Source: a virus (Duplodnaviria > Caudoviricetes). From it: DNA of 64,000 bases. Below, one piece after another: positions 2,734-64,000 of this stretch (its first letter is position 1; every line of letters begins with the position of its first letter). The notes below the pieces were generated by a model. It was not told the origin of the DNA. It did not search any database and saw only the letters and a list, made by a program, of their open reading frames with translations. The DNA is taken from IMG/VR virus record IMGVR_UViG_3300021964_009400; one strand, written 5' to 3'. The position numbers were made by a program, and so were the translations under genes.

Positions 2734-3501
2734 ATGCCAAAGAAAAGAAGAAAAAAATCCAAAATATATTTCGGTACACCTGCGCAAGAAGCAATTATCG
2801 AATATAACAAATGTAAAGACCCGGTAGAGAGGTCTAAAATTTACGAGGAACGAATTAAATTTCCTTTTGAAAAATTGGCAGAGAATGTAATGAATACATT
2901 TAAATTTACTTATTTTGATGTGCCAAAAAAAGATGTTCAAATGGAAGTAGTTTCTGTTATGGTGGAAAAGATGCATATGTTTCAAGAAGGTAAAGGTAGG
3001 GCTTTTTCTTATTTTACTATTATTGCAAAGAACCATTTGATTTTAGCAAACAATGGTAATTACAAAAGATGGAAACAAAATTCTTTATTATCTCAAATGC
3101 CAGAAACCTGGAACCCTGAAAATGATTTTGTAAAAAAACAAGTAGATAATGAATTTAATGAATTTAAAAACATAATGTTAAAATATTGGGATAAAAACCT
3201 AAATATAGTATTTACAAAAAAAAGAGATTTACAGATTGCAGATTCTATACTTGAATTATTTAGAAGAAGTGAACATATAGAAAACTTTAATAAAAAGCAT
3301 TTATATCTACTTATAAGAGAGATGACTGATTGTAAAACTCATTACATCACCAAAGTTGTAAATGTAATGAAAAAACATCAGAAAAAACTTTTAAATGATT
3401 TTTTAGAATATGGAGAAATAATTGATGTAAAAAAATCTCCATTTTGGAAACAAGAAGAAGAGGTTGACGAAAATCCTTTTCTAGATAATGAATATTTGTA
3501 A
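2734..3501 (+). CDS. phage sigma factor, T4 gp55-like (late transcription)
   Basis: YFGTPAQEAIIEYN and FQEGKGRAFSYFTIIAKN resemble gp55-type sigma region 2. The ATG at 2734 is preferred over the track start at 2716. Confidence 0.65.
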   Translation: MPKKRRKKSKIYFGTPAQEAIIEYNKCKDPVERSKIYEERIKFPFEKLAENVMNTFKFTYFDVPKKDVQMEVVSVMVEKMHMFQEGKGRAFSYFTIIAKNHLILANNGNYKRWKQNSLLSQMPETWNPENDFVKKQVDNEFNEFKNIMLKYWDKNLNIVFTKKRDLQIADSILELFRRSEHIENFNKKHLYLLIREMTDCKTHYITKVVNVMKKHQKKLLNDFLEYGEIIDVKKSPFWKQEEEVDENPFLDNEYL

Positions 3502-45849: not shown

Positions 45850-46256
45850 TGAGTATGTATAAAATAGGAGTAATTGCAGGAAACTTTGATGTTATACATC
45901 CAGGTTATATTAAAATGTTTAAAGAATGTAAATCATATTGTGAAAACTTTATAATTCTTTTACACACCGACCCATCAATAGAAAGACCAGAAAAATTAAA
46001 ACCAATTTTATCAAAAGAAGAAAGAACAGAAGTTTTAACTTCAATAAAATGGATAGATTCAATTGCTTATTATACTTATGAAAAAGAGTTGGTAGAACTA
46101 CTAAAAGGATTAGAACCAGATATCAGATTTTTGGGTGATGATTATCGAGGTAAAACATATACAGGTTTCGAATTAGATATACCAGTTCATTATTTAAACA
46201 GAGACCATGGTTGGAGTACAACAAAATTTAAAAAACTAATTGCTGATACGATATGA
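45846..46256 (+). CDS. cytidylyltransferase (TagD/RfaE-like)
   Basis: AGNFDVIHPGY, GDDY and WSTT motifs. Confidence 0.82.
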   Translation: MMSMYKIGVIAGNFDVIHPGYIKMFKECKSYCENFIILLHTDPSIERPEKLKPILSKEERTEVLTSIKWIDSIAYYTYEKELVELLKGLEPDIRFLGDDYRGKTYTGFELDIPVHYLNRDHGWSTTKFKKLIADTI

Positions 46257-47722: not shown

Positions 47723-47746
47723 TATATATTAATACAAAGATATTCA

Positions 47747-49195
47747 ATGGCAGATTTAATAGCAAAACAAGAAGAGAAAAAAAGAAAAATTAATATTGAT
47801 GATGATAGTCCATTTTATGTGGATATTAGAACATCATTAAATGACCAAGGACCTGGGTTTTGTTTAGCAAAGTGGACACAAGTTACAATGCATTTACAAT
47901 TAGGTCATACTCATTCTTGTCATCACCCTAAAACACATCAAGTTCCTTTAAGAGAATTAAAAAGAAATCCAACTGCTCTTCACAATACAATGTACAAGAA
48001 AAGAAGAAGAAAAGAAATGTTGGAAGGACAAAGACCAGATGAATGTGATTATTGTTGGAATGTAGAAGATAGTTCAAATAGATTTTCAGATAGAACTTTT
48101 AAATCTGCAGAGAACTGGTCATATCCTTATATGGATGAAATTAAATCATTGGGTTGGAGAGATGATTATAATCCAAAGTATGTTGAGGTTTCATTTTCAA
48201 ATGCATGTAATTTTAAATGTTCTTATTGTGGACCAGCATTTTCTACAAAATGGATGGAAGAAGCTGAAAAATTCGGAGCATATCCAACAACAGATGCTTT
48301 TAATGATTTAACTTATTTAAAAGACGAAGGTAAAATGCCAATGCCAGTAACCCAAGTAAATCCATATGTAGATGCATTTTGGAAATGGTGGCCGGATTTA
48401 TATAAAGATTTACATACTTTTAGAATTACAGGTGGTGAACCTTTAATGTCACAAGATACTTGGAAAGTTTTAGATTATATAATAGAACATCCAAATCCAA
48501 ACAGAGAACTCAACCTTGCGATTAATTCAAATCTAGGAGTACCTGATAAATTAATTGATAAGTTTATTGATAAAGTTTCTAGAATATGTGATGAGAATAG
48601 AGTAAAAGAATTTGTAATATTTACATCAGTTGATAGTTGGGGTAAACAAGCAGAATATATTAGAAATGGTTTAGAATTTAATAGATTTTGGGACAACTGT
48701 CATAAAGTTTTGCAAAAATGTCCAAAGGTTATTTTAACTTACATGGTTACATATAATGCATTATCAGTTCCAAACTATCATAAACTTATTAGAGGTGTTT
48801 ATGACCTAAAAACTACTTATGGTTCTGATGATAGATATTGGAATTCAGCAACCTTTTTAGATACATCTTATTTAAGACACCCAACACACCAAACAGTTCA
48901 AGTTTTAGAACCACATTGGGCGGATAAAATTTATCAAGATGCTCAATTGGTTGATTTTTTAGGAGTTCCATTATTTGAAAAAGAATATATTGGTTATTCT
49001 GATGTAGAAATACAAAAACTTAAAAGAACATACGATTGGATGAAATCACCAATTGATGAAAAAAGATTACAAACTCAAAGAAGAAATTTTGGATATTATT
49101 TTAGAGCACATGATGAAAGACGAGGAACTGATTTCTGTGCAACCTTTCCTGAATTAGAAGAATTTTATAGAAAATGTTTAGAAATTAAGATATGA
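47747..49195 (+). CDS. radical SAM protein with N-terminal Cys/His-rich (SPASM/twitch-like) region
   Basis: CNFKCSYC; ITGGEP; FCLAKW...HSCHHP...CDYCW. Confidence 0.88.
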   Translation: MADLIAKQEEKKRKINIDDDSPFYVDIRTSLNDQGPGFCLAKWTQVTMHLQLGHTHSCHHPKTHQVPLRELKRNPTALHNTMYKKRRRKEMLEGQRPDECDYCWNVEDSSNRFSDRTFKSAENWSYPYMDEIKSLGWRDDYNPKYVEVSFSNACNFKCSYCGPAFSTKWMEEAEKFGAYPTTDAFNDLTYLKDEGKMPMPVTQVNPYVDAFWKWWPDLYKDLHTFRITGGEPLMSQDTWKVLDYIIEHPNPNRELNLAINSNLGVPDKLIDKFIDKVSRICDENRVKEFVIFTSVDSWGKQAEYIRNGLEFNRFWDNCHKVLQKCPKVILTYMVTYNALSVPNYHKLIRGVYDLKTTYGSDDRYWNSATFLDTSYLRHPTHQTVQVLEPHWADKIYQDAQLVDFLGVPLFEKEYIGYSDVEIQKLKRTYDWMKSPIDEKRLQTQRRNFGYYFRAHDERRGTDFCATFPELEEFYRKCLEIKI

Positions 49196-49926
49196 TAGAA
49201 CTTAAAGGAGATAATGCTTTTTTTATTCCACCAAAAAATAGATATGGATTATCTAAAAAAGAAACTTTCGATTTAACAGAAAAAGATTTTTCTATTTGTG
49301 TTAAAGTAAAAATTGATTGGGATTCAATGATACCAGGTACTCCAACACATGAGGGTGGTATTGTTGCAAAAAATGGTAGACATTGTGGATTGAGTGCACT
49401 AAAATTAAATGAAAATCAATGTTATATAAAAGCACAATTTTGGACATGGGTAAGTAGAGAAGTTGGTGTTGAATTTCATGATACATGGATTGATATTAAA
49501 GAAAAAAAAGATTGGATGTCAATCGCAATGATTCACGAAAAAAATAAAAAAATAATCACTTGTTATGTTGACGGTGAAGTATCAAAAATATCATATACAG
49601 GTGAAATTATAGATTACAGAGATTCTTGGATTTGGGTTGGTTGTAATAACTCACTTGATAGTTGTGCACCGGAACATAGAGGATTTATGAAAGGTAGTAT
49701 TAAACATATATCAATTTTTGAATCTGCGTTATCACTAGAATCCATTGAAGAAACTTTTAAAATACAAAATACAGATGATGTAGATTTTGAAAAAAACCCT
49801 TGTGGTATTTATTCTTTTAATCCAGAATGGCAAACTCCATATAAAATTATGGATATTACTCACAATGGTAATTCAATGATTTTATTTGATAAAAAATGGA
49901 TGGCAGAAGAAACAAAATTAATGTAG
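49192..49926 (+). CDS. stand-alone LamG/concanavalin A-like domain protein
   Basis: WMSIAM..., YVDG, IWVG, FMKGSIKHISIFESALS. Confidence 0.7.
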   Translation: MIELKGDNAFFIPPKNRYGLSKKETFDLTEKDFSICVKVKIDWDSMIPGTPTHEGGIVAKNGRHCGLSALKLNENQCYIKAQFWTWVSREVGVEFHDTWIDIKEKKDWMSIAMIHEKNKKIITCYVDGEVSKISYTGEIIDYRDSWIWVGCNNSLDSCAPEHRGFMKGSIKHISIFESALSLESIEETFKIQNTDDVDFEKNPCGIYSFNPEWQTPYKIMDITHNGNSMILFDKKWMAEETKLM

Positions 49927-49931
49927 TTTAA

Positions 49932-51356
49932 ATGAAAAAACATATTCACTTTGTATATGATTTTAAATTTCCAAATGGGTATCTACAATTTGGATATGAT
50001 AAAAGTACCATAAGAAATAACTTTTTTCATCAACTTGAAAGTGATTTAATAGAATCTATTATTTTACCAAATCCACATAATCCATCTGTTCTAACAGAAC
50101 AAAGTGGTATGTTTGCTGATGAATATATTAGTACAAATGTAAATTGGAATAAATTAGGAGTTAATCAAATTCAAGATGTACTCGATAGAAAACATTATAA
50201 TAATACACAAAATTATTTTATAATTTGTTTAGAGGCAACAAATAATTCATCGTTCTTTGAATATTATTCAAATCCAAATATTAATTTTGATAATTTATTT
50301 TCTCCAAAACTTTTAGATTTTTTTAAAAAAAGACAAGAATTTAAATTGGTATTACTTGATAATAGAGAAGGAAGTTACTATCATGACCCGGCATTGTTTA
50401 CAAAAATAAGTAAATGGTTGGATAAGAATAATATAGTAGGTAAAAATAAAGTTATTGTTTCTACTTGTAATGAAAAAATAAATGATATACCTATAAAGGA
50501 TAACAGAATCAAAACTTACAATAATGATTATTATTTATATTATTCAGGTAAATTTATAGTAGAATGTGAAGAACGAAATAATCTAATTACAGAAGATGGT
50601 AAAGATTATCAGTATTCATTACAAGATAAAATAAAATTTAATAAAAGAGAAAAGTATTTTTTAAATTATAATAGAAACTCTGGTAGATTTCATAGACCAT
50701 TTTTAATAAATAAATTATATAATAAAAATATTTTAGATAAAGGTATAGTATCATTACTCAAAACTAATGAATTTGATAGTATCATTAATGATATAAAAAA
50801 TAATTTAAAAGATTATAATCCAGATTTTGGTTTAGATTTACAAAATGAAGATTATAAAACGATATATTTAAATCACAAAAATTGGTATCCATTGGTAATT
50901 GATAATGAGAATGAAGAAGAAGTGGCATGGTACCATAATTTTTTAAGTAGAAAAGATGAATACGAAAAAACATATTTTTCAATAGTTTCTGAGACAAATG
51001 CAGAAGATATATATTTATTTATAACAGAAAAAACTTTAAAACCAATAATGAATTTGCATCCATTTTTAATAAATGGTAATCCATATACATTAAGACACTT
51101 AAAAAGTTTAGGGTTTCAAACATTTGAAAAATGGTGGGATGAGAGTTATGATACTGAAACTAATTTTAAAAAAAGAATTTTATTATTAGTAGAACAAATA
51201 AATATTCTCTGTAATAAAACACATGAAGAATGGATAAAAATGTTAGAAGAAATGCAACCAATTTTGCATTATAATAAAAATCTTCTAAAACAAAAATATA
51301 CAAGTAAAAAATTTGAAGATAATTTCTTAAAACAATTTCAAATTGAGTTATTATAA
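49932..51356 (+). CDS. putative glycosyltransferase (GT10-like paralogue 2 of 4)
   Basis: FLNYNRN..RFHR; YFSIVSET...FITEKTLKPI...HPF...LGFQTF..WWDESYD. Confidence 0.55.
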   Translation: MKKHIHFVYDFKFPNGYLQFGYDKSTIRNNFFHQLESDLIESIILPNPHNPSVLTEQSGMFADEYISTNVNWNKLGVNQIQDVLDRKHYNNTQNYFIICLEATNNSSFFEYYSNPNINFDNLFSPKLLDFFKKRQEFKLVLLDNREGSYYHDPALFTKISKWLDKNNIVGKNKVIVSTCNEKINDIPIKDNRIKTYNNDYYLYYSGKFIVECEERNNLITEDGKDYQYSLQDKIKFNKREKYFLNYNRNSGRFHRPFLINKLYNKNILDKGIVSLLKTNEFDSIINDIKNNLKDYNPDFGLDLQNEDYKTIYLNHKNWYPLVIDNENEEEVAWYHNFLSRKDEYEKTYFSIVSETNAEDIYLFITEKTLKPIMNLHPFLINGNPYTLRHLKSLGFQTFEKWWDESYDTETNFKKRILLLVEQINILCNKTHEEWIKMLEEMQPILHYNKNLLKQKYTSKKFEDNFLKQFQIELL

Positions 51357-51365
51357 AAAAAAGTT

Positions 51366-52331
51366 ATGAAAATATTAATTACAGGTGGTTCTGGTTATTT
51401 AGGTTCAGTTATTACAGAAAAATTACTAAACAAAAACTATAAAGTTACTGTTTTGGATAATTTGATGTATAATCAAACCTCATCAATTATTTTTGCACAC
51501 AATCCTAATTTTGATTTTATATATGGGGATGTTAGAGATAAATCACTACTTAAATCTTTAGTAAATGATTTCGATGTAATTATTCCTCTAGCAGCAATAG
51601 TAGGATTTCCAGCTTGTGATAAAGATAAAGATTTAGCAACTGCAATTAATTATGAACACGTCCGCTACATTTGTGAGTTAGTAAAAGATTCTGATATACG
51701 AATAGTTTACCCAAATACAAATAGTGGATATGGGATAGGAGAGAATGGAGAGTGTACTGAAGAAAGCCCACTTAATCCAATATCACATTATGGGGTAACA
51801 AAAGTCAAAGCAGAGAGTGAGGTTTTGAGTATTGGTGGAATATCTGTAAGATTAGCAACAGTATTTGGCTCTTCCCCAAGAATGAGAATGGATTTATTGG
51901 TAAACGAATTTGTTTACAAGGCATTAACAGATAAATACATTACAATCTTTGAAAAGAATTTTGTAAGAAATTACATACACATTAGAGATGTTGCAAATGT
52001 ATTTTTGTTTATGATTGAAAATTATGAAACTCATAGTGGGGAGGTTTTCAATGTAGGTTTATCAGATGCTAATTTATCTAAACAACAATTAGTAGAAAAA
52101 ATACAAGAATATGTACCAGATTTTGCAATCACATATTCTGATTATTATGAGGATCCTGATAAAAGAGATTATATAGTTTCTAATGATAAAATTGAATCAA
52201 CAGGTTGGAAGCCTGAATTTTCATTAGATACTGGTATTGAAGAATTAATTAAAACATATACCATTCTTATACAAGATTTAAGTTCAAAGTATAGAAATGG
52301 GTTTCCATTAGGTTATGGCAAAAGGACATAG
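51366..52331 (+). CDS. NAD-dependent epimerase/dehydratase (extended SDR)
   Basis: TGGSGYLG; YGVTK. Confidence 0.9.
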   Translation: MKILITGGSGYLGSVITEKLLNKNYKVTVLDNLMYNQTSSIIFAHNPNFDFIYGDVRDKSLLKSLVNDFDVIIPLAAIVGFPACDKDKDLATAINYEHVRYICELVKDSDIRIVYPNTNSGYGIGENGECTEESPLNPISHYGVTKVKAESEVLSIGGISVRLATVFGSSPRMRMDLLVNEFVYKALTDKYITIFEKNFVRNYIHIRDVANVFLFMIENYETHSGEVFNVGLSDANLSKQQLVEKIQEYVPDFAITYSDYYEDPDKRDYIVSNDKIESTGWKPEFSLDTGIEELIKTYTILIQDLSSKYRNGFPLGYGKRT

Positions 52332-52899
52332 TATATTTTATAAACAAAGAGACTGGGATGATTTTCATTTCTATCATGGTTCTAAGTTAAATGAAGTAAA
52401 GGTTATACAACCCTCGGTTTATTATGAACAAAGAGGTTCTATATCTACAACTTATCATACAGATTATTACGATAGAATCTTGCCTGCTGAGGAAAGGACT
52501 AAGGGATTAAAATTTAAACATGATAGATTTTCTAAATCTAAACAAAATGTACTCAGAGGATTACACTATGATGATAAAACATGGAAGTTAGTAAGTTGTT
52601 TACATGGTAAAATTTATTTAGTAGTTTTAGATTTAAGACAAAAACAAGATAACTATGGAAAATGGGAATCTTTTATTCTTTCACCAGAAACAACAACACA
52701 GGTATTAATACCACCAATGTTTGCTAATGGACATTATGTATATGAAGATGATTCAATTTTTTATTATAAAATGGCATATCATGGTGAATACAATGATGAA
52801 AATAAACAACAAACAATTAAATGGGATAGTAAAAAGTTTAACATAGAATGGCCTTGTACAAATCCTATAATTTCAAAAAGAGATGCAAATGGAAATTAA
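52315..52899 (+). CDS. rmlC: dTDP-4-dehydrorhamnose 3,5-epimerase (RmlC-like)
   Basis: NVLRGLHY, KLVSCLHG, VVLDLR, FANGH motifs. Confidence 0.85.
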   Translation: MAKGHSIFYKQRDWDDFHFYHGSKLNEVKVIQPSVYYEQRGSISTTYHTDYYDRILPAEERTKGLKFKHDRFSKSKQNVLRGLHYDDKTWKLVSCLHGKIYLVVLDLRQKQDNYGKWESFILSPETTTQVLIPPMFANGHYVYEDDSIFYYKMAYHGEYNDENKQQTIKWDSKKFNIEWPCTNPIISKRDANGN

Positions 52900-53527
52900 A
52901 AATTTAGATTATCACGAAAATCGATGGGTTGATGGAAACTATTCAAAAGAAGAATTAATTGCTTTTGAAGATGATATTATAACACATTGGGAAGGTGGAG
53001 ATATTAGAGGACCAATTCATTTATCTAATGGAAACGAAAAACAACTTATAGAAATATTTAAAAAAATTGGAATAAGTGATTGGGTATTTTCAACTTGGAG
53101 GTCACATTATCATGCTTTATTACATGGAGTAGACCCAAAGTATTTAAAACAAAAGATTTTAGAAGGTAAATCAATAACTATTATAGATAAATCATCTAAT
53201 TTTTATTCTTCGGCAATAGTAACTGGTATTTTACCAATTGCATTGGGAGTTGCAAAAGGTTTAAAAGAAAAAGGAAGTGATGAAAAGGTTTGGTGTTTCA
53301 TTGGTGATATGACTTTTGAAACTGGTATCTTTTACGAGGTACACAAATATGCAAGAAACTTTGATTTACCAATTTATTTTGTAGTGGAGGATAACGAAGT
53401 ATCAACAAACACACCTACTGGTGCAACTTGGAATAATATTCAGAGAGAAATACCAGAAGATGTAATATATTACAAATATAAATCAAAATATCCCCATTAT
53501 GGGACAGGAAAATGGGTAGTATTTTAA
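52883..53527 (+). CDS. ThDP-dependent enzyme, E1-alpha/transketolase N-terminal-like
   Basis: HLSNGNE, WRSHYHAL, GD...N ThDP motif (IGDMTFETG...VEDN). Confidence 0.82.
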   Translation: MQMEIKNLDYHENRWVDGNYSKEELIAFEDDIITHWEGGDIRGPIHLSNGNEKQLIEIFKKIGISDWVFSTWRSHYHALLHGVDPKYLKQKILEGKSITIIDKSSNFYSSAIVTGILPIALGVAKGLKEKGSDEKVWCFIGDMTFETGIFYEVHKYARNFDLPIYFVVEDNEVSTNTPTGATWNNIQREIPEDVIYYKYKSKYPHYGTGKWVVF

Positions 53528-54699
53528 ATTTTGTTTCTTTATTTGGAGAGGACGATAGACCAGATTGGGTTATAAGAGGTCCTCTAACTGATTATCTTGA
53601 AAATAATTACAAACATACAATTGGAATTGATTTCGATAATAGTTTAAACAATATTATTGTATTAGAAACAGTAGAACATTTTAAAGGTTGTTTCCAAAAT
53701 CTTCGAACCAAGTTTTCAGGCACATCATTAGTTGAAATATTAAAAAACAATGATATAAAAATAATATTTGGGTCAATTGCAGACCCTTCCAGTCGTATTG
53801 ATAAAAACAAATTAATGAATCAAATCGAACTATTAAATTTAACAGATAAAGTTTACTATTTAGATAGTGTTATAAATCATCAAGAAGATAAAAATACTTT
53901 TTGTTATCATCATTTTTTAGAAGAACCTGGTATTCATTATGAAAACTTTGGAAACTATAATTTTTTTGAAGAAATTAATGATTTAGGTTATAAAAGTAAA
54001 GATATAGATGAAACTGAAATAGATACATTTAGAGAAAAAAAGTTTTTATCATTTAACAGAACCGTAGATAAAGATAATCGATTAAGTTTATATCACACTT
54101 ATTTAGAAAACGATTTTTCAGATTCATATTTTAGTTTCTTAAATATGTCAAGTGATTATAATGATGATATGGACGGTTGTAATTTTTTTACAAGTACACC
54201 AAAATTGAGTTATAGTAGTTATAAAGATAAATTGCCAATTGAACTTGATACAAAAGATATTGATGTAAATTTGTGTAATTTTAAAACAAGTAATACATTT
54301 AAAAAAAAATTATTTTTAAATTCTTGTATTAACATCGTAACAGAAACATCATTTAGCACTAATAGTATTTTTATATCAGAAAAAATTATAAAACCAATTT
54401 TATGTTTTCAACCCTTTTTAGTTTTAGGACCACAGTACTATCTTAAAGAATTAAAAAAATTGGGTTACAAAACTTTCTCTGAATTTTGGGATGAAAGTTA
54501 TGATGAAATAAAGAGTGGTGCACAAAGATATTTTGCAATAGAAAAAATAATATTAGAATTAAATAATAAAACAATTGAAGAAATAAATGAACTTTATCAG
54601 AAAACTAAAAATATATGTATATATAATAGGAAAGTATTTGATAATTTTAGACAAAATTCAATTCCACAAATAATAAAACAAATAGAAAATGAAGGATAA
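53512..54699 (+). CDS. putative glycosyltransferase (GT10-like paralogue 3 of 4)
   Basis: FLSFNR...NR; INIVTET...FISEKIIKPI...QPF...LGYKTFSEFWDESYD. Confidence 0.55.
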   Translation: MGSILNFVSLFGEDDRPDWVIRGPLTDYLENNYKHTIGIDFDNSLNNIIVLETVEHFKGCFQNLRTKFSGTSLVEILKNNDIKIIFGSIADPSSRIDKNKLMNQIELLNLTDKVYYLDSVINHQEDKNTFCYHHFLEEPGIHYENFGNYNFFEEINDLGYKSKDIDETEIDTFREKKFLSFNRTVDKDNRLSLYHTYLENDFSDSYFSFLNMSSDYNDDMDGCNFFTSTPKLSYSSYKDKLPIELDTKDIDVNLCNFKTSNTFKKKLFLNSCINIVTETSFSTNSIFISEKIIKPILCFQPFLVLGPQYYLKELKKLGYKTFSEFWDESYDEIKSGAQRYFAIEKIILELNNKTIEEINELYQKTKNICIYNRKVFDNFRQNSIPQIIKQIENEG

Positions 54700-55654
54700 A
54701 AAGGTTTTGATAACAGGTGCCAATGGATTGGTTGGTAACTATATGGTTCAAAAATGTATCGATAAAGGTGCATTTGTTACTGCGGTTGATATTAAACAAC
54801 CAGACAATCAAATTCAAAAATATAAAGATGAAAACTATCAATTCATCAAGGCAGATTTAAGAGAGTTCTCTTCTTGTAAAAGAGTTGTAGAAGGTCAAGA
54901 TATCATATTTCATATTGCAGGTGTTAAAGGTTCTCCTAAGAGGGCTATGGAACAACCCGCTGATTACTTTGTACCGATGTTACAATTCAATACTAATATG
55001 ATGGAGGCGGCTCGATTGGAAGATGTTGAATGGTATGTTTACACATCAACAGTTGGAGTTTATCAACCAGCTGAAGTATTTTACGAAGATGATGTATGGA
55101 AAACCTTCCCATCAGAAAAAGATAAGTATGCTGGATGGGCAAAGAGATTAGGTGAATTACAAGCTGAAGTTTATTCTGTATCATTCGATTGGAACAAAGC
55201 ATCAGTTGTAAGACCAGCAAACATTTATGGTAGACACGATAACTTCGGACCAGAATCAACAGTAATCGCATCACTTATCAAAAGATTATTTGGTGAAAAA
55301 GAACATCCACTAATTTGTTGGGGAGATGGTTCACCAATTAGAGATTTTATTTACGCTGGTGATGTTGCTGATGGAATCATAAAAGCATATGAACAAAAAT
55401 TAACACAACCAATCAACTTAGGTAGTGGTACTGGTGTTACCATTAGAGAACTTGCTGAAACTCTTGTAGATATCTACGAAGAAATGTATGGAGTTAAAGT
55501 TGGTATCGAATGGGATAGTACAAAACCAAATGGAGATGCAAAAAGATTAATGAGCACAGAAAGAGCTGAATCTTTCGGAGTTATTCAACAGGTATCTCTT
55601 AGAGAAGGATTAAAAGAAACAATAGATTATTATTTAAACGAATTTACAAAATGA
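54689..55654 (+). CDS. NAD-dependent sugar epimerase/reductase (GDP-fucose synthase / GDP-mannose epimerase-like)
   Basis: TGANGLVG; YAGWAK; RPANIYG; WGDGSPIRDF. Confidence 0.87.
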   Translation: MKDKKVLITGANGLVGNYMVQKCIDKGAFVTAVDIKQPDNQIQKYKDENYQFIKADLREFSSCKRVVEGQDIIFHIAGVKGSPKRAMEQPADYFVPMLQFNTNMMEAARLEDVEWYVYTSTVGVYQPAEVFYEDDVWKTFPSEKDKYAGWAKRLGELQAEVYSVSFDWNKASVVRPANIYGRHDNFGPESTVIASLIKRLFGEKEHPLICWGDGSPIRDFIYAGDVADGIIKAYEQKLTQPINLGSGTGVTIRELAETLVDIYEEMYGVKVGIEWDSTKPNGDAKRLMSTERAESFGVIQQVSLREGLKETIDYYLNEFTK

Positions 55655-56643
55655 AAAAAACAGACAAAATTTTAGTTACAGGCGCAAGTGGATTTATAGG
55701 TTCACGATTAATTAAGATGTTATACGAATTAGGTTACACTAACTTAAGAGCAACATCTTGGAGTAGAGATTTAAGAAACGATTTCGAAGGATGTGAAAAT
55801 ATAGAACATATCAAAGGTAATTTACAAGATGCAGATTTTTGTGAGATTGTATCAAAAGATTGTAATGTTGTAATTCATGCAGCTGCTAATACATCTAATG
55901 CATTAGATACACGATTTAATCCTTTACTTCATGTTACACCAAATGTAGAGATGAATGTAAACCTTATGGAACAATCATGGAAACATAAAGTAAGAAAATT
56001 TATTTTTATATCTTCGAATACAACTTATCCTGATAAAGGAGATGTTCCTTGTACTGAAGATATGGAAGTACAAACATCTGATATCGTACCAGTTTACAAA
56101 GCAGTAGGTTGGATGAAAAGATATTGTGAAACTCTTTGTGATTTCTTTTCAAACCAAATTCATGACCCAATGCAATGTGTAATCATCAGACCTTCAAATG
56201 CATTCGGACCAAACGATAAGTATGATTTTGAAAAATGTCATGTAACTCCAGCTAATATCAGAAAAGTTGCAGATAACTTAAACCCAATACCAGTTTGGGG
56301 TGATGGTACTGAAGTAAGAGATGTTATTCATGTTGATGATATGGTAAGTGGATTTATAACAGTTGCTGAAAAAGTTGATACATACGATATTTACAATGTA
56401 TCTTATGGTGAAGGATATACTGTTATGGAAGTGCTTGATAAAATTAAAGAAATCGAAGGAAACACAAACCCAGTCGAATTCGTAAACAACAAGGCACCAA
56501 TGATACCAGTTAGATTATTAGATAATACAAAATTAAAAGCACTTGGTTGGAAACCTAAATATGATTTAGAAAGTGGTTTAAGAGATGCACTTTCTTGGTA
56601 TAAAGAAAACAAAGACCAATTTAATCCTAATTCAAAACCATAA
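55651..56643 (+). CDS. NAD-dependent sugar epimerase/reductase (GDP-fucose synthase-like)
   Basis: TGASGFIG; VGWMKR; RPSNAFG; WGDGTEVRD. Confidence 0.87.
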   Translation: MKKTDKILVTGASGFIGSRLIKMLYELGYTNLRATSWSRDLRNDFEGCENIEHIKGNLQDADFCEIVSKDCNVVIHAAANTSNALDTRFNPLLHVTPNVEMNVNLMEQSWKHKVRKFIFISSNTTYPDKGDVPCTEDMEVQTSDIVPVYKAVGWMKRYCETLCDFFSNQIHDPMQCVIIRPSNAFGPNDKYDFEKCHVTPANIRKVADNLNPIPVWGDGTEVRDVIHVDDMVSGFITVAEKVDTYDIYNVSYGEGYTVMEVLDKIKEIEGNTNPVEFVNNKAPMIPVRLLDNTKLKALGWKPKYDLESGLRDALSWYKENKDQFNPNSKP

Positions 56644-57191
56644 TGGCAGAACCAAAGTTTACACCTTATTTAGATGCATTAACAGAGGCAATGAAACTTT
56701 GTATGGAAGATGATAAAACAATATTCATCGGACAACAGATAGTTTATTATGGAAACCCAATGAGTAAAACTATTGAGGGATTGCCAAAAGAAAGAATGAT
56801 AGAAACACCAGTAATGGAAGAAACCCAAATGGGAATGTCATTGGGTTTAGCAATGAGTGGATATAGTGTAGTAAGTTTTTATCCAAGATGGGATTTTGTA
56901 ATTTGTGCAGGAAATCAACTCATAAATCATCTAGATAAAATTAATGTAATGTCTGATGGTGCATGGAATCCTAATATAATTATTAGAGTTGGTAAAGGTT
57001 CTGATACTCCATTAGACCCTGGTCATCAACATAAGGCAGATTATACAGAAGAATTTAAAACAATTTTAAAACATATAAATGTGATAAAACTTGATTCTCA
57101 TGAAAAAATACTTCCTGCTTATAAAGATGCACTAAAAAAAGGTGGTATATGGTTGATGGTTGAATATCCTCAATTATATTATGAAAATTAA
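56643..57191 (+). CDS. ThDP-dependent enzyme, E1-beta pyrimidine-binding domain only
   Basis: IETPVMEETQMGMSLGLA; 182 aa with no C-terminal domain. Confidence 0.8.
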   Translation: MAEPKFTPYLDALTEAMKLCMEDDKTIFIGQQIVYYGNPMSKTIEGLPKERMIETPVMEETQMGMSLGLAMSGYSVVSFYPRWDFVICAGNQLINHLDKINVMSDGAWNPNIIIRVGKGSDTPLDPGHQHKADYTEEFKTILKHINVIKLDSHEKILPAYKDALKKGGIWLMVEYPQLYYEN

Positions 57192-58635
57192 TAGAGTATT
57201 TGATGTTATAGGTCCTAGAGGACCAGTTCCCAATGGATTAAATTGGAATTATACCGATACTTTTTGGGATTATAATTTTTACATTTATCATAAACTTATA
57301 GATGCGTTTAATAAAAAATATACACAACTATCAGTTTACGATTGTAATTTAAATCTACCAGGTGATAGTACAAAAACCTATCATATTAGTGATTTACATT
57401 TTGATGAATCAAAAAAATTAATCACAAATAATAATGAAAAATATTTCTATACCATACATCCATTTGGAAATGTTCATTTATCTACTGGTTTAGATATATC
57501 ATATCATCAAGGAAAGCATAGTTTTGATTTTATATCAAAGAAAGCAAAAATATATTCAGAAGCAACAAACTTTTGGTTTATATATGATTATAGTAGTGAG
57601 GGAGATATTAATGAGTATATATTTGAATCACTACATGAATCATGTAAGCGTACTAATATAAATCCTTCAAAAATTATTGTTATTACTGGTGCAGAAAATA
57701 CATCTGATATTTATAAAAGTTTTTTAGAAAAAAATCCACAAGATAATTTATTTTATACTGCATTTTATCCTTGGTCTCTTCTTGGAAAAGCGAAAGATAC
57801 ACAATCTATTTTGTTCGAAAGAAAAAGAATAAATTTTAATGGTTTTAATAATGAAAATTCATTGATGTTAGATGATGAGTTTGATAAATTAACTCAAAGA
57901 GAATCTTATGCACTTTGTTTAAATAGAAGATTGGCACCACATAGAATAATTTTAATTAGTTGGTTATTTGAAAACAATTTATTTGATAAAACAAAAACTT
58001 CTTATGATATAGAACTTTTACATAGAGATGATGCAGGATTGGATTTAGTATCTGGTAGTGGTCACGATGGAGAAAGTTACTTATTAAATCAAGATACCAA
58101 GAATCAGATAATGAGTGGTTACAGAAAAATGATACAAAAAGAAAAAAATATAATTGATTTCAAAGATATTAAAAATGTGTGGGGATTTGCATTTGAAAAA
58201 TCAGAAAATTACAAATCTACATATTTTTCAATTGTAACAGAAACTTTGTTTTATGAGTATGGAAATTATTTATCTGAAAAAACATGGAAACCAATTGCAC
58301 ATTTGCATCCATTTGTATTAATTAGTAGACCAGGTATGTTGAAGTTTTTACATAGTTTAGGATTTAAAACATTTTCTGAATTTTGGGATGAAAGTTATGA
58401 TACTATTGAATCAAATCCTAAAAGAATGGAAAAAATACTTAAAGTATTAACAGATTTATTATCTAAAAGTAAAGATGAATGGGATGAGTTAAATAAAAAA
58501 TTAAAACCAATACTTATTTATAATAGAAACTTACTTTTATCGTTTCAAGAAAAAAAAGTAGGTAATGCTTATAAAAATAAATTATTTAATTTAATTGAAA
58601 ATGAACCCAATCAAGAAAATTATTACTTACTTTAA
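57181..58635 (+). CDS. putative glycosyltransferase (GT10-like paralogue 4 of 4)
   Basis: LCLNRR..PHR; YFSIVTET...YLSEKTWKPI...HPF...LGFKTFSEFWDESYD; ATG at 57181. Confidence 0.55.
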   Translation: MKINRVFDVIGPRGPVPNGLNWNYTDTFWDYNFYIYHKLIDAFNKKYTQLSVYDCNLNLPGDSTKTYHISDLHFDESKKLITNNNEKYFYTIHPFGNVHLSTGLDISYHQGKHSFDFISKKAKIYSEATNFWFIYDYSSEGDINEYIFESLHESCKRTNINPSKIIVITGAENTSDIYKSFLEKNPQDNLFYTAFYPWSLLGKAKDTQSILFERKRINFNGFNNENSLMLDDEFDKLTQRESYALCLNRRLAPHRIILISWLFENNLFDKTKTSYDIELLHRDDAGLDLVSGSGHDGESYLLNQDTKNQIMSGYRKMIQKEKNIIDFKDIKNVWGFAFEKSENYKSTYFSIVTETLFYEYGNYLSEKTWKPIAHLHPFVLISRPGMLKFLHSLGFKTFSEFWDESYDTIESNPKRMEKILKVLTDLLSKSKDEWDELNKKLKPILIYNRNLLLSFQEKKVGNAYKNKLFNLIENEPNQENYYLL

Positions 58636-58717: not shown

Positions 58718-58762
58718 TTCTTTTTTCTTCCATATTTATATACTGATAAGGTATATTGGAAT

Positions 58763-61700
58763 ATGAACAAACTTTCACAATTTCTCGTAGAGAGTATATT
58801 GGAGGACAAAAGTCCTATTAAGAAGGTGGTAGTAATTTATGGTGGTAGATTTCAACCATTCCATAAAGGACACTACGGCACATACCAACACCTTGTCAAA
58901 AAATTCGGTAAAAATAATGTTTTTATCAGTACTTCCAACAAAGTAGAAAAACCAAAATCACCTTTTAACTTTAAAGAGAAGGTGAAAATCATGACTACGA
59001 TGTTCAATATACCTAAATCAAAAATAGTACAGGTAAAAAACAATTATGCTCCAACCGAAATCCTCAAAAAATACGATAAAAACACAACCGCCTTCATAGC
59101 CGTTGTTGGTGAAAAAGATTCCAATAGATTCCTTGGTGGAAAATATTTCAAACCATGGAAAGGGCATGCTGAAGTTGGTTATGAGGATGGTGGTTATGTT
59201 TATGCTGCTCCATCAAGTGGTGGTGGTATTAGTGGAACTGAAACTCGAAATGGTTTATCAGTTGGTTCTGATGACCAGAAGAAGTCTTTCTTTAAATCTC
59301 GTGCATATGGAAAGTTCAATGCAACGATTTTTAATATGATTACTGATAAACTTAATGAAGGGGTAATCGAGATTTCTAAAGAAAGGATAGAAGAATGGCT
59401 CATCAACGAGAGTTCGGTGATGAGTTCAGGTCAAGTGGATGATGGGCCAAACTTCTTTATTCCAAACTACGATATATTTCAACGAGTATCTGCTAAAAGA
59501 GCAGCAAAGATTGGATATGAGGTTGTAAATATGATTACTTCTAAAGAAATCGAAGATTACTATGACCATCCAAATTATCCTGATGGACCAGTAAAAGCAG
59601 TTACTTATTTCCCTGCTGGTGTTTTGGGTGCAAAAACCGCAACCAACCAAGTTGATATCTACTCATCTAAAGCATATTCGAATTGGTACAAACATATTAC
59701 TCGTAAGGCATCAATGGTAGGTTATGAGTTGGTTAAATCACTTGCAAGTAAAGAAGATTTAAAACAAGATAAGGAACAATCAGTAGATGATGCAAAAGGA
59801 GATAAGGTTTCTCAGAAAGAATACGAAGCATCTTTAAATGAGGCAATCAATCTACCAGTAGAAGTTGGTGATACTATCTTAATGGGTAGATTTAAAAACA
59901 AAAAGGTTAAAGTAAAAACTATTGGTAAAGATGAACATGGAATGCCAACTATCAATGGAAAAAAGGTTGTAACTTTCCGACTAATGAAAGAAGGTTTCGT
60001 AACCGAGCTCGCGGGAACTGAAGTAAAATGTGAAAAATGTAATCATTCTTGGGATATAGAAGAAGATGATACAGAAAAGTACCTTTGCCACTCCTGTGGT
60101 TGGGATTCACAACAACAAGAATATGATTATGCGGCATTTGATTCTTGGCAAGAAAAAATGGGTATATCTGAAGATGTGGATATAGATGAAAGAAGTAAGG
60201 GTAGATTAAGACCAGCAGATTTATTGAGAAGAAAAGCAGCGATGGCTGGTAAACGAGCTCAAATTGCAAGAAGAAGAAAAAGAACAATGATGAGGAGAAA
60301 ACCTCTTTCCAAGCTTAAAAAGATTGCATACAAAAAAGCATACCTACAAGTTTATGATGAGTTTATGCAGGATTTATTTCCTGGTATTGCTAAAAAAGAT
60401 TTATCAATTCAACAAGCAAAGATAGTTCATAAGAATGTATTAAGAAAAAAGAAAAGAGTTCTTAAAAGAGCAAGATTTAGATTCTTACCAGCATTAAGAG
60501 ATAAAGAAGCAGAAAAGTTTGGTGGTAAAAATAATACAAACGAATTAATGATTGGATATGCAGGACCTGAAGATATGAAAAGGTTTGCAAAGAGAAATAA
60601 AGAATATAGAAAAGATGCTGAATCAAGTAAAGAGTATCAATACGAACCAATCAAAGAACAATCAGATAAAAAAACACAATGTATCAATAACTTTGTAGAA
60701 TATGCTTGTAAAAGATTAAAACTTGATGGTAATCCGAAGATTTCATTAATGAGTGGTACAGAATATTCAGATACTCACAAAAGTTTAGGTGGTTTCAATC
60801 CACAAACAAAAGAAATCTATGTTGCAACTGAAAATAGATTAACTGCTGATATTTGTAGAACTATTGCACATGAATTAGTTCATAGAAAACAAGATGAGAT
60901 GGGATTATTAAAAGACCCAATCAAAGATGGAGCAGATGGTTCACCGATTGAAAACCAAGCTCATGCAGTAGCAGGTATTATTATGAGAGAATATGGTAGA
61001 ATTGATGATACAATCTACCAAGAAGAAATTAACTCTTTTTATTACGATGATTTAGCAAAGTATGTTTACAAAAAAAGAGGAGTGATAAATAAATTGTTCA
61101 AAAACTTATCTGATGAGAAAAAGGCTGAGTATTTAGAAAAACTTTACATCAAATTATTCCAAGGACCAACTTCAAGAATGGTTCACAGAGATATCAAAGG
61201 TAAAGGTGGTGATTTATTGAAGATGTTAAGAAAAGATAGAAGATTAAAAGAAGGTAATGAACTTAAAAAATTAGAAATTACCGATTTTAAATCCCTCTTT
61301 AAGAAAATGCCAAGTGATTTACAAAAGAGAGTTTACAATTTAAAGAACTTTGGACAGAGAGCAGATAAACATCCAGAGGGTAATGTACTTAAACACACAA
61401 TCACAGTTGTAAATCGTTCAATCAAAGAAGATGATATTGATATTGCAATCGCAGCAATGTTCCACGATATAGGAAAAGATGAAACTGCTGGTATTCATCC
61501 AAAGAAAGGACACATTACACACTTTGGACATGAGAAAGTATCAGCATCTTTAGTAAAGAAGTATAAAAAGTTTATAGAATCAGTTGGTGGTAATCCAGCA
61601 AATGTATTTTACATTGTTAAAAACCATATGAGATATAAACAACTATCTGTAATGACACCTAAAAAAGTAAATAAACTAAAATCATTCAGAGCATTCGATA

Positions 61701-64000
61701 AATTAGGTAAATTCTCTAAACACGATAGAGCAGGGTTAGATGAAAACAAAGCAACAAGAACAAAGTTCAATTTAACCATACCTTCTGATATTAAAAAACT
61801 TCAAAAGGCATTTAAAAAAGATAAAAAACAACTTTATGTAGTTGGTGGAGCAGTAAGAGATGCACTTGTTGGTAAGAAACCAAAAGATTTTGATTTAACA
61901 ACAGATGCAACACCAGAAGAAATGATTAAGATTGCTAAAAAAGGTAATTTTAAACATTCTACAAATAATATAAACACAAATCTTGATTTAGGAAGTATAG
62001 CAATCAATGGACATGAAGTAACTACCTTCAGACAAGATGTTGGTAAAGGTAGGAGACCAGATAAAGTAGTTTATTGTGATATTTCAACAGATTCGAAAAG
62101 AAGAGATTTAACTTGTAACTCTTTATACTACGATATTGAGAAAAAAGAGATTATTGATTTCCATGGTGGTGTAGAAGATATGAAAAAGGGAGTTATCAGA
62201 ACAGTTGGTAAACCAGCGGAAAGATTTGATGAGGACCCATTAAGAAAATTAAGAGCAGTAAGATTCGAAACTCGAATGAATGCTAAATTGGATAAAGAAA
62301 CTTTAGATGCACTTAAAAAAGATAACAACATATCACAACTTACAGGTGATAGAATAATGAGAGAGTTTAGAAGTGCAATTAAACAATCAAAAAATACTAA
62401 AGTTTATTTAGAAAGATGTGATGAAATTGGATTTACTAAACAAATCCTACCAGGTCTTAAAGTAAGTAAACCATATCCACACGATAATAACTATCTTACA
62501 TTTATTGCATTTATCCTAAGAGATAATGACCCAAATAATGTAGGAAAAGTATTAAATAAAATTGAGTATAGTAATGATGATAGAGATGATATCAAATTTT
62601 TAATATCACTAAAGAATTTTACACCTGATAAAATTATACAATTTAAAAAACTACATAATAATGTAAAAAAACTCAAAGATAAAGATATAGTAGAGTTTGG
62701 TAAACGAATTGGTAAAAAACTTGATAAGTTTGTAAAATTTAAACTATCAGTAAGTGGTAACGATGCACCAAAAGATTTAAAAGGACCTGAAATTGGATTG
62801 TGGTTAAAAAATCAAGAAAAGGAAAAGTTTATGAAAGAAATTGATGATTTAGTAAACGATATTGATAAAAAGATAGTTGAGATGTTTTTTCCAACTACTG
62901 AAATACCAAAACCAATAAACGAAGGTGGTGCGTATGGACATATGTCTCACCCATTTGATACTGATATCAATTTAACCTTTGGACAACTTAAAGATATCGT
63001 AAATCGTGCACTCGAAGGTACACTTGAGTTCACAAGAGAGAAAACAGATGGTCAAGCACTAGCTATTTCATGGAGAGATGGTAGGTTAGTAGCAGCGAGG
63101 AACAAAGGACACCTAAAGAACAGAGGTGAGAACGCTTTAGATATCAAAGGTGTATCAGATAAGTTCCAAGGTAGGGGTGGGTTAAGTGATGCATATAATT
63201 ATGCAATGAAAGACCTCTCAAATGCAATCAAATCACTTAACGATAAACAAAGAGATAAGATTTTTAAACAAGGTGCGTGTTTTATGAACCTTGAAGTGAT
63301 ATATCCAACATCAGTTAATGTGATTCCTTATGGACAGGCGCTACTTGTGTTTCATGGTACTATGGAATATGATATGGAAGGTAAAGCAATAGGTGAAAAT
63401 GGAGAAGCAGCAAGAATATTGGCAGGTATGATTAAACAAGTCAATAAAGATGTACAAGATAATTACACAATTCAAGGACCTCCTGTTGTAAAATTACCAA
63501 AATCTCAAGACCTTTCTAAGAAAAGAAGTAAATACTCATCAAAAATCTCAAAATTACAAAAAGAATTTGGATTAAAGGATACTGATGGTGTTGCAAACTA
63601 TCACCAAGGGTGGTGGGAACAATGGGTTGATAAAAATTCACCATCAACACTTGATAACAAAACCAAAATGGGGTTAGTTAAGAGATGGGCATTCATGGAT
63701 AAGAGTTTTAGATTAGATAATAAGAATATTTCTGATTCTAAAACACTTGAATGGGCTAAAAAGACAGATAAAGAGGACCAAAAGAAAATTTCCAAACAAA
63801 ATTTAATGAAGTTTGAAGAGATTTTTCTTGGTCTTGGAGCAGAAGTATTGGAATTCACCTCATCAGCACTAACAGTTAATGCAGATTCTGCAGTTCGTGA
63901 TATAAAGAAACGAATTGATAAAACAATTAAAGATGTTAAAAAATCAGGTGACCCAAAAAAGATAGAAAAACTTAAATTAGAACTTGAAAGATTAAATTCT
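58763..64000 (+). CDS. giant multidomain polyprotein (3' partial, at least 1746 aa): HxGH nucleotidyltransferase / KOW-like / Zn finger / basic / HExxH peptidase / HD / CCA-type NTase / RNA-ligase-like
   Basis: Translated by hand with no stop to the window end. GRFQPFHKGH (aa 28-37), CEKC/CHSC (423-445), HELVH (703), HPEG..FHDIGK (870-905), VGGAVRD..DFD (1027-1044), RRDLTCN, EDPLR, EKTDG (K1427). Confidence 0.88.
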   Translation, partial: MNKLSQFLVESILEDKSPIKKVVVIYGGRFQPFHKGHYGTYQHLVKKFGKNNVFISTSNKVEKPKSPFNFKEKVKIMTTMFNIPKSKIVQVKNNYAPTEILKKYDKNTTAFIAVVGEKDSNRFLGGKYFKPWKGHAEVGYEDGGYVYAAPSSGGGISGTETRNGLSVGSDDQKKSFFKSRAYGKFNATIFNMITDKLNEGVIEISKERIEEWLINESSVMSSGQVDDGPNFFIPNYDIFQRVSAKRAAKIGYEVVNMITSKEIEDYYDHPNYPDGPVKAVTYFPAGVLGAKTATNQVDIYSSKAYSNWYKHITRKASMVGYELVKSLASKEDLKQDKEQSVDDAKGDKVSQKEYEASLNEAINLPVEVGDTILMGRFKNKKVKVKTIGKDEHGMPTINGKKVVTFRLMKEGFVTELAGTEVKCEKCNHSWDIEEDDTEKYLCHSCGWDSQQQEYDYAAFDSWQEKMGISEDVDIDERSKGRLRPADLLRRKAAMAGKRAQIARRRKRTMMRRKPLSKLKKIAYKKAYLQVYDEFMQDLFPGIAKKDLSIQQAKIVHKNVLRKKKRVLKRARFRFLPALRDKEAEKFGGKNNTNELMIGYAGPEDMKRFAKRNKEYRKDAESSKEYQYEPIKEQSDKKTQCINNFVEYACKRLKLDGNPKISLMSGTEYSDTHKSLGGFNPQTKEIYVATENRLTADICRTIAHELVHRKQDEMGLLKDPIKDGADGSPIENQAHAVAGIIMREYGRIDDTIYQEEINSFYYDDLAKYVYKKRGVINKLFKNLSDEKKAEYLEKLYIKLFQGPTSRMVHRDIKGKGGDLLKMLRKDRRLKEGNELKKLEITDFKSLFKKMPSDLQKRVYNLKNFGQRADKHPEGNVLKHTITVVNRSIKEDDIDIAIAAMFHDIGKDETAGIHPKKGHITHFGHEKVSASLVKKYKKFIESVGGNPANVFYIVKNHMRYKQLSVMTPKKVNKLKSFRAFDKLGKFSKHDRAGLDENKATRTKFNLTIPSDIKKLQKAFKKDKKQLYVVGGAVRDALVGKKPKDFDLTTDATPEEMIKIAKKGNFKHSTNNINTNLDLGSIAINGHEVTTFRQDVGKGRRPDKVVYCDISTDSKRRDLTCNSLYYDIEKKEIIDFHGGVEDMKKGVIRTVGKPAERFDEDPLRKLRAVRFETRMNAKLDKETLDALKKDNNISQLTGDRIMREFRSAIKQSKNTKVYLERCDEIGFTKQILPGLKVSKPYPHDNNYLTFIAFILRDNDPNNVGKVLNKIEYSNDDRDDIKFLISLKNFTPDKIIQFKKLHNNVKKLKDKDIVEFGKRIGKKLDKFVKFKLSVSGNDAPKDLKGPEIGLWLKNQEKEKFMKEIDDLVNDIDKKIVEMFFPTTEIPKPINEGGAYGHMSHPFDTDINLTFGQLKDIVNRALEGTLEFTREKTDGQALAISWRDGRLVAARNKGHLKNRGENALDIKGVSDKFQGRGGLSDAYNYAMKDLSNAIKSLNDKQRDKIFKQGACFMNLEVIYPTSVNVIPYGQALLVFHGTMEYDMEGKAIGENGEAARILAGMIKQVNKDVQDNYTIQGPPVVKLPKSQDLSKKRSKYSSKISKLQKEFGLKDTDGVANYHQGWWEQWVDKNSPSTLDNKTKMGLVKRWAFMDKSFRLDNKNISDSKTLEWAKKTDKEDQKKISKQNLMKFEEIFLGLGAEVLEFTSSALTVNADSAVRDIKKRIDKTIKDVKKSGDPKKIEKLKLELERLNS

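Follow-up and report, generated by a model that had tools for sequence, protein, structure and literature searches.

The locus

The window analysed here is a stretch of 64,000 nucleotides corresponding to bases 1111-65110 of an 84,048-nt virus record in IMG/VR (IMGVR_UViG_3300021964_009400; G+C content 30%; completeness 41% by CheckV), and its right-hand end is taken up by a plus-strand gene for a giant polyprotein in which disparate domains (HxGH transferase, zinc ribbon, zincin, HD domain, CCA-adding enzyme and RNA-ligase fold) are joined in one chain. A preliminary description of the window had proposed an open reading frame (ORF) that starts at ATG 58763 and meets no stop, and this is what is found: the frame is open for 1746 codons up to the end of the window (58763-64000), and in the full record it runs on for 120 nt to a stop, giving a product of 1785 aa.

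Could such a chain be an artefact in which separate genes have been joined? This can be rejected, because the same or a similar architecture recurs in many independent assemblies: the family is abundant in marine metagenomes, with 1706 full-length homologues (1030-1853 aa) from independent assemblies and 1735 cluster representatives of the last, ligase-fold module; 564 relatives are found in IMG/VR contigs; and one homologue is 93% identical across its full length. From cultured phages the family is nearly absent, the ligase module occurring in only three of 50,697 GenBank phage records, and a megablast search against GenBank phages gave no match. Two related loci (L031 and L055) carry polyprotein copies in overlapping frames, which are either assembly errors or decayed genes; these apparent gene splits are frameshifts inside modules and not splits at junctions.

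The modules of the polyprotein

All features of the chain are on the plus strand. It opens with the leader MNKLSQFLVE/SILE/ (aa 1-14; 58763-58804; a slash marks a predicted point of cleavage), a candidate capsid-targeting propeptide recognised by its conservation among homologues and holding two sites of the form h-x-E (a hydrophobic residue at position P3, any residue at P2, and glutamate at P1, immediately before the predicted cut). Module 1 (aa 15-196; 58805-59350) is an HxGH nucleotidyltransferase resembling NMNAT (Pfam CTP_transf_like, 34 bits). Its GRFQPFHKGH is identical to that of the archaeal NMNAT 1f9a, the match being below the NMNAT family cut-offs (27 bits versus 127-181), confined to the first ~55 residues and at E 0.002 in the PDB. 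The junction that follows (aa 197-216; 59351-59410) contains LNE/G, VIE, IEE and INE/S, and 86 homologues show no variation of P3 or P1 at 197-199 or 214-216. Module 2 (aa 217-357; 59411-59833), which had no match in family searches and is poorly modelled by AlphaFold2 (AF2), is closed by an LNE/A (aa 358-360) kept in all 86 of these homologues. A small beta module, SH3/KOW-like by eye and with its strands visible in the AF2 model, comes next (module 3, aa 361-407; 59843-59983) and is followed by MKE/G and VTE/L (aa 408-415), in a coil with a predicted local distance difference test score (pLDDT) below 50; homologues diverge directly after the KE/G. Module 4 (aa 416-467; 60008-60163), a CxxC...CxxC zinc ribbon with weak matches to the HypA and MJ0042 zinc fingers, leads into ISE/D and IDE/R (aa 468-476); every upstream context of this module ends in h-x-E, and a breakpoint at 470 was seen in 11+7 alignment ends.

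The central part of the chain begins with an Arg/Lys-rich segment, helical in the model (module 5, aa 477-629; 60191-60649), which contains TNE/L (594) and ends in IKE/Q (630-632), where residue 632 is the commonest breakpoint among homologues. Module 6 (aa 633-751; 60659-61015) has the HExxH motif of a zincin (AHELVH, aa 702-707, read from the sequence) and precedes YQE/E (752-754); a protein-atlas lead to Peptidase_M78-like viral proteins is its only assignment, and it was found in only nine of ~120 close homologues. The helical module 7 (aa 755-827; 61025-61243), delimited by breakpoints at 749-757 and 828-834 and by junction coil in the model, ends in LKE/G (828-830). The AF2 model of aa 190-840 (mean pLDDT 56) was used only to tell coil from structure.

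Module 8 (aa 831-991; 61253-61735) is an HD phosphohydrolase of the kind found in multifunctional CCA enzymes (Pfam HD, 31 bits; NCBIfam CCA addition/repair HD region) and is closed by LDE/N (992-994), with a homologue breakpoint at 994-998. Module 9 (aa 995-1356; 61745-62830) is a class II tRNA nucleotidyltransferase, putatively CCA-adding rather than A-adding or poly(A)-forming (Pfam PolyA_pol, 98 bits against a cut-off of 23; PHROG 2244, E 6e-53; NCBIfam). A junction with MKE/I, IVE/M and INE/G, recognised from upstream contexts in homologues (aa 1357-1387; 62831-62923), separates it from module 10 (aa 1388-1785, the last 39 aa lying past the window; 62924-64000), which by AF2 model and structure comparison has the fold of the covalent nucleotidyltransferases of RNA ligases, with a helical insert. 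Pfam and PHROG searches found no MuF or portal domain in the polyprotein, and an internal repeat suspected from overlapping alignments (aa 550-632 against 1291-1383) proved not to be real.

Leader and junction sites

The T4 internal proteins (IPs) IPII and IPIII start MKTYQEFIAE/A (T4 record). The polyprotein begins in a similar way, with a 10-residue propeptide ending in a site of the (L/I)-x-E type (MNKLSQFLVE/S, then ILE/D), and the T4-like targeting peptide proposed in the preliminary description does match that of IPII and IPIII in length and pattern. The leader is kept as M[NS][EK]LS.[FY]LVE in nearly all complete homologues. Propeptides of this type, of 10-20 residues, are the established capsid-targeting sequence of T4 and are removed by gp21 (PMC5694885, PMC3012670). 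Within the genome studied here, leaders ending in [LIVMF]xE at residues 8-12 are carried by 10 of ~20 ORFs of the head module, versus three of 53 ORFs elsewhere (Fisher P=5e-5). In about ten genes of the head module (record positions 68247-81100 of G000:C1, equivalent to 3137-16000 of L003) they have 9-11 residues and an L-x-E end, as in MKLKDILNE, MKLTQLLKE, MRLRDLLPE, MKLKDLLPE, MISMKKLLNE and MSMEKNLKE, and these genes are candidates to encode internal or core proteins of the capsid. The start of a scaffold-like protein, MANSNLLKE/A, resembles that of gp22, MLKEQLIAE/A.

The prohead protease of T4, gp21, cuts after (I/L)-x-E. The 17 x-x-Glu sites proposed earlier for the polyprotein are all where they had been placed, and most merit the description hydrophobic-x-E, but TNE594 and YQE754 have no hydrophobic P3; the interior IKE that had been conceded for the HD domain is also present (residues 887-889). 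P3 and P1 hardly vary among 86 non-identical homologues at 8-10, 12-14, 197-199, 214-216, 358-360, 408-410, 413-415, 468-470 and 630-632, whereas P2 and the neighbouring residues do. For the eight module types compared, 235 of 267 distinct upstream contexts have [LIVMFY]xE among their last ten residues, versus 14% of random positions. Tandem sites 5-6 residues apart are common, and in ~120 close homologues the listed upstream contexts of the last module all end in h-x-E, often with a second site 5-6 residues earlier. Examples of junctions are ..EPIKE/GLKELGITDF, ..EPIRE/NINE/SKLLLE/GGAYGH, ..GGLGE/GMIME/GGAYGH, ..MGLNE/SKNFKLKVPSD and ..NFLNE/MPMSDL, and a module start at the predicted P1' residue (the first after the cut) is exemplified by GGAYGHMSHPFD...

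Position in the chain was analysed with breakpoints defined only by comparison with homologues, and hence independently of the motif. Six of the 25 strict [LIVM]xE motifs lie within 8 residues of a breakpoint, the breakpoint windows making up 6.7% of the chain (P=0.005), and between residues 280 and 840 the AF2 model places seven of nine motifs in coil of pLDDT below 50, such coil amounting to 29% of that stretch (P=0.004). Three other figures were set aside. An interior depletion of 8 motifs versus 18.6 expected was discarded as circular, because the junction segments had been drawn around the motifs; the observed/expected ratio in the ligase family (0.74, versus 1.2-1.4 in the phage's other proteins) was not used, the sequences being related and a proper control set lacking; and the use of all-against-all alignment ends as breakpoints (27-34% within 3 residues of a motif, versus 12% by chance) was noisy and was replaced by the anchored analysis.

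A prohead protease in the same genome

If the junctions are to be cut, what would cut them? A gene for a Peptidase_S77 protein (T4 gp21; PF03420; 92 bits) lies 7.5 kb downstream of the polyprotein gene and separate from it, between the portal and capsid genes (G000:C1:72824-73255), so the candidate cutting enzyme is not part of the chain. In an alignment with T4 gp21 its product shares the GELDHP and SSRGxGS motifs, and its N-terminus, ..NNLLIE/T, resembles that of gp21, MNEPQLLIE/T. In the local capsid protein, LDE/A is aligned on the T4 gp23 maturation site LTE/A. The same protease is found 7-8.8 kb downstream in all 28 of the related loci long enough to judge, and the search for a gp21-type enzyme that the preliminary description had suggested is in this way answered, both here, with the catalytic motifs conserved, and among relatives.

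Module shuffling and stand-alone versions

When the chain was compared by BLASTP with 120 homologues, modules were seen to have been inserted, deleted, duplicated and permuted, with recurrent breakpoints at ~470, 590-594, 632, 749-757, 828-834, 994-998 and 1369-1387. In P0044-P0053, for example, the CCA module comes directly after residue 470, ahead of the basic module. The most constant modules are the basic helical one (aa 477-629) and the N-terminal part. Whether shuffling preserves the junction motifs had been put forward as a check, and x-x-E does stand at the borders whatever is joined.

Some relatives have separate genes instead. In L094 (2321-7597), three genes replace the one, again with terminase, portal and S77 protease downstream: a transferase with a cupin domain (737 aa), a CCA enzyme with a 2H phosphoesterase domain (605 aa) and a ligase-fold protein (396 aa, leaderless; P0259). 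The CCA protein starts MNSRLLAE/SKLQLSLPPDI, and the residues after the slash begin at the exact module border that reads ..LNE/SKNFKLKVPSDI inside polyproteins. Stand-alone genes for the last module start MITFRQYISE/GG, MRNIGPYLIE/GG, MTELLTE/GG or MKLKSAYRQAITE/GG; P0101, which lacks the first 620 residues, has its own leader, MIKLTDIFE/D; and in an 89-kb ENA scaffold (L009, 7710-16300) four separate genes, among them those for an HxGH transferase and a ligase-fold protein, share the leader M..(I/L/F)GPY(I/L)xE, which parallels the leader shared by the T4 IP genes. The exchange also extends to a head-module gene: the module ETFTATNKKSGE...KAGTHE follows the leader MRLRDLLPE/Q in a gene of this phage and VFE/VIFE/DD in the polyprotein P0122. 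In our view, the strongest argument for a reading in which the chain is packaged and processed is this comparative one, that a leader stands where otherwise a junction stands.

Two head-module proteins (L003 8428-9912 and 12432-13823) have paralogous N-terminal modules of ~40 residues (..FTAT.K..G...VFK.K..RDAAIKAGTHE) right after their leaders, and this module is present inside polyproteins of other phages as well (P0122, P0005).

The ligase-fold module

Module 10 had no sequence match in Pfam, NCBIfam or the PDB, and by sequence is outside the described ligase families Rnl1-5. An AF2 model built from an alignment of 53 sequences (pLDDT 94.5) is similar to the nucleotidyltransferase domains of the Naegleria, T4 Rnl1, Trl1, REL1 and T4 Rnl2 RNA ligases (VIA Z 8.1-8.7 over 180-200 residues); by Foldseek alone the match is weak (E 0.008). 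The nucleotidyltransferase fold is split by the helical insert, of ~190 residues. Motifs I (KxDG), IV (EG) and V (K) can be recognised, with K40, D42, G43, G371 and K382 invariant and E370 nearly so in the 53 diverse members. Within the family the position of the module is nearly always C-terminal. Distant members (P0140, P0145, P0152, P0191, P0195 and others) have Cys (..LLLC/GG) or Met (..LLLM/GG) in place of the Glu before the module.

The phage and its gene neighbourhood

The source phage is a T4-like myovirus. The order of genes in the record is a gp6-like baseplate wedge protein, primase, SbcCD nuclease and a large sugar-nucleotide cluster; the polyprotein comes next, followed by two small ORFs and the genes for the large terminase and a T4-type portal protein, and then by the head module and a gp23-like capsid protein. 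The capsid proteins of cultured phages nearest to the last are those of Microcystis phage Mel-JY01 (54%), the Flavobacterium phages 'immuto' (51%) and Rhodothermus phage RM378 (39%). A two-module version of the polyprotein, of 639 aa, is encoded upstream of the terminase in Mel-JY01 (PP395634); it joins the transferase through ..IIAE/GG to the ligase fold, whose predicted mature start is GGLGGHM.., and the phage has an S77 protease of its own. In 78 of 78 IMG/VR loci that could be judged, the terminase follows ~1.4 kb downstream of the polyprotein stop, and the portal gene comes after it.

Upstream of the polyprotein gene there is a promoter-like motif, ATATTTATA(T), at 58732-58741 on the plus strand, 31 nt before the ATG; within it, TATTTATA at 58733-58740 is the motif that had been noticed 22 nt before the start codon. 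The exact 10-mer occurs ten times on the plus strand of the window (1.7 expected), within 5256-44208 and at 58732-58741, and never on the minus strand; further copies are at 65255, 68220, 70423 and 82821 of the record (G000:C1). As (T)ATATTTATA(TA), the motif has 23 plus-strand copies in the whole record versus six on the minus strand. For most copies a start codon follows at a distance of 12-61 nt, and the genes concerned include tail-fibre, baseplate-region and head-module genes; the polyprotein gene, directly upstream of terminase and portal, has a motif also seen before structural genes. A variant, TTCGTATATTTGTATA, precedes the primase gene and two others, and the motif differs from the T4 late consensus TATAAATA.

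The sugar-modification cluster (44428-58635), directly upstream of the polyprotein gene, includes genes for three nucleotide-sugar epimerases, a dTDP-4-dehydrorhamnose 3,5-epimerase-like protein and a radical SAM protein, and a gene for a Nol-like carbamoyltransferase is situated further upstream (3501-5216). Two other giant ORFs are present at 17437-22653 (1738 aa, without PHROG match) and 33005-40297 (2430 aa, with weak tail-fibre matches). In a related phage contig (L093), a gene for ribosomal protein S21 (PF01165; 4498-4752) adjoins scaffold-like and capsid-like genes, with a NUDIX gene and a gene for a ligase-fold protein with a leader close by.

How might the polyprotein be used?

We think it probable that the polyprotein is a cargo precursor, directed into the prohead by its leader, cut at its junctions by the S77 protease, and retained in the virion as pieces that are later ejected with the DNA. 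Targeting, cleavage, retention, ejection and the enzymatic roles are all proposed from the features of the sequence, their conservation and the presence of the protease gene, and processing is better supported than ejection. The precursor would be made together with the head proteins, and its leader, like the targeting sequence of the T4 internal proteins, would take it into the scaffolding core. Once activated, the gp21-type protease would cut after the Glu of h-x-E at every module junction, freeing about ten separate proteins in the head, with loss of the short spacers between tandem sites. At infection the mature pieces would leave with the DNA and could act before any phage gene is expressed. 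If HD, CCA and ligase-fold modules are read as a set that heals, rebuilds and seals tRNA, the released enzymes would most plausibly repair tRNAs damaged by host nucleases. This is in essence the chain of enzymes, packaged, cut and injected, that the preliminary description had imagined; leader, junctions, protease and shuffling favour it, and its loading, cutting and injection are predictions from these.

Several observations weigh against such a scheme. The strict motif is no more frequent in the polyprotein than composition would predict (25 versus 24.5), and its deficit within domains defined independently is not significant (7 versus 10.8 expected, P=0.11), so the concentration at linkers claimed earlier holds for breakpoints and coil but does not extend to a total excess or to an interior deficit, and the case for the junction motifs would rest on position and comparison rather than on number. 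At some junctions P3 is polar (ETNE, KKNE, KKDE), and the homologues are closely related, the junction counts not being independent events. Across the wider ligase family, 25 of 126 representatives have Cys or Met directly ahead of the module, which may reflect an internal start, a structural role or a protease of different specificity, and two members begin directly at the module with no leader; given these variants and leaderless members, part of the reason for the h-h-x-E at this border could be structural. P0083 likewise begins at the CCA border without a leader, some stand-alone ligase genes sit among replication genes, and L094 has, at the polyprotein locus, a separate ligase gene that lacks a leader, so these enzymes evidently can work without packaging.

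The most serious rival, which we nevertheless consider unlikely, is an ordinary multidomain enzyme of RNA repair or nucleotide metabolism, working uncleaved in the cytoplasm of the infected cell, with the Glu-containing junctions serving as flexible acidic linkers and the leader being simply the start of the first domain. Such an enzyme would be consistent with the lack of overall excess and interior depletion just described and with the leaderless and split versions; the transferase and ligase modules, moreover, co-occur as neighbours or fusions, which suggests that they work together, and T4 makes its own tRNA-repair enzymes in the infected cell rather than packaging them. It would leave unexplained, however, why conservation is confined to P3 and P1, with P2 and the neighbouring residues free to vary, why unrelated pairs of modules always meet at x-x-E, often in tandem, how modules can be permuted (as in P0044-P0053), why separate-gene versions gain a short leader ending at the very same border, and why leaders of this type are otherwise concentrated in head genes.

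That the chain is indeed packaged and cut by the prohead protease, but that its pieces serve mainly within the capsid, as core or scaffold or, through the Arg/Lys-rich module, in DNA condensation, seems to us improbable. The basic helical module does resemble T4-type basic internal and core proteins in composition, and with the N-terminal part it is the most constant portion of the chain; against this, the family as a whole conserves the catalytic motifs of its ligase-fold, CCA, HD and HxGH modules, pointing to enzymatic use, and we know of no substrate inside the capsid for a tRNA nucleotidyltransferase or an RNA ligase. Self-processing of the chain by its own HExxH zincin (aa 633-751, with its atlas lead to Peptidase_M78), for which the metallopeptidase domains of polyvalent proteins, as presented in PMC5512222, offer a proposed precedent, is very hard to credit and can be rejected as a general mechanism, since most homologues lack this module while the junction motifs are universal and match the specificity of the separate S77 protease.

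Relationship to known systems

Individual parts of the proposed scheme are already known: the T4 targeting leader, the specificity of gp21, the processing of ejection proteins in phiKZ-like phages, and polyvalent proteins. The closest parallel to a packaged and processed precursor is with the T4 internal proteins IPI, IPII and IPIII and with Alt. These, too, begin with a short propeptide that ends in (L/I)-x-E, and their genome encodes a gp21-type S77 protease; their leader is constant and their cargo varies greatly, and they are presumed to be delivered with the DNA as counter-defence. Each of these is a single cargo, cut once or twice, whereas here some ten unrelated modules form one 200-kDa precursor with a site at every junction; and the T4 cargoes are restriction inhibitors and an ADP-ribosyltransferase, whereas those predicted here are enzymes of RNA repair and nucleotide metabolism.

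Polyvalent proteins of phages and conjugative elements (PMC5512222) similarly unite numerous enzymatic domains of disparate kinds in a single phage polypeptide, whose gene adjoins virion genes, with predicted early injection and rapid domain shuffling between orthologues; their prediction to be injected is also made in PMC9503650. They differ in the MuF or portal fusions and the self-processing by an embedded metallopeptidase that are invoked for them, in place of the T4-type leader and the separate prohead protease acting at junction motifs that are proposed here. Term searches of that paper returned no mention of a CCA-adding enzyme or an HD domain, and according to its authors no 2H domain of a polyvalent protein was ever seen in association with an RNA ligase.

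In the giant phages phiKZ and SPN3US, a gp21-related protease cuts inner-body and ejection proteins after the Glu of a three-residue motif, at multiple sites per substrate, and the mature fragments are ejected (PMC5694885, PMC10052503); prohead-protease processing of ejection proteins is known for phiKZ-like phages (PMC5694885). Their substrates lose long propeptides and the motif is (S/A/G)-x-E, unlike the (L/I/V/M)-x-E here, and in that literature (PMC5694885, PMC10052503) we did not find these substrates to be chains of independent enzymes separated by sites.

A final likeness is with T4 tRNA repair (Pnkp and Rnl1) and with the multifunctional CCA-adding enzymes of bacteria, in that healing (HD phosphoesterase), rebuilding (CCA addition) and sealing (RNA-ligase fold) would be combined in a single genetic unit, presumably to counter tRNA nucleases of the host. 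Pnkp and Rnl1 of T4 are separate early proteins that are not packaged, and the ligase-fold module described here belongs to a separate family, with its large helical insert; unlike in the multifunctional CCA enzymes, the HD module precedes the head domain of the CCA enzyme, with a junction site between them.

Biological significance

Injected phage proteins are known either as single cargoes (the T4 internal proteins, Alt) or as uncut giants (N4 RNA polymerase, P1 DarB), and in the literature searched we found no T4-type precursor with a prohead-protease site at every module border, and neither packaged tRNA-repair enzymes nor the ligase-fold family of module 10. A precursor cut at every junction would, if real, be a new way to load many enzymes with one targeting signal, and would explain how sets of cargo evolve by exchange of cassettes. 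It may be that in this T4-like lineage of marine phages the prohead-protease motif has become a universal connector, so that any module flanked by h-x-E can be added to a plug-and-play cargo cassette behind one leader, taken into the capsid and set free there as a protein of its own; through such a cassette a kit for healing, CCA-rebuilding and sealing tRNA, perhaps with NAD-related and protease activities, would be injected before the phage's own genes are expressed. This wider view we regard as just as apt to fail as to hold, and if it holds module 10 would constitute a new family of RNA ligases. A precursor packaged and cut in this way would also make tRNA repair deliverable pre-made, which makes sense if host nucleases block the very translation on which counter-defence genes depend. 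Leader and junction rule together could also help to recognise packaged proteins in T4-like phages that have not been cultured, and could serve the engineering of cargo loading.

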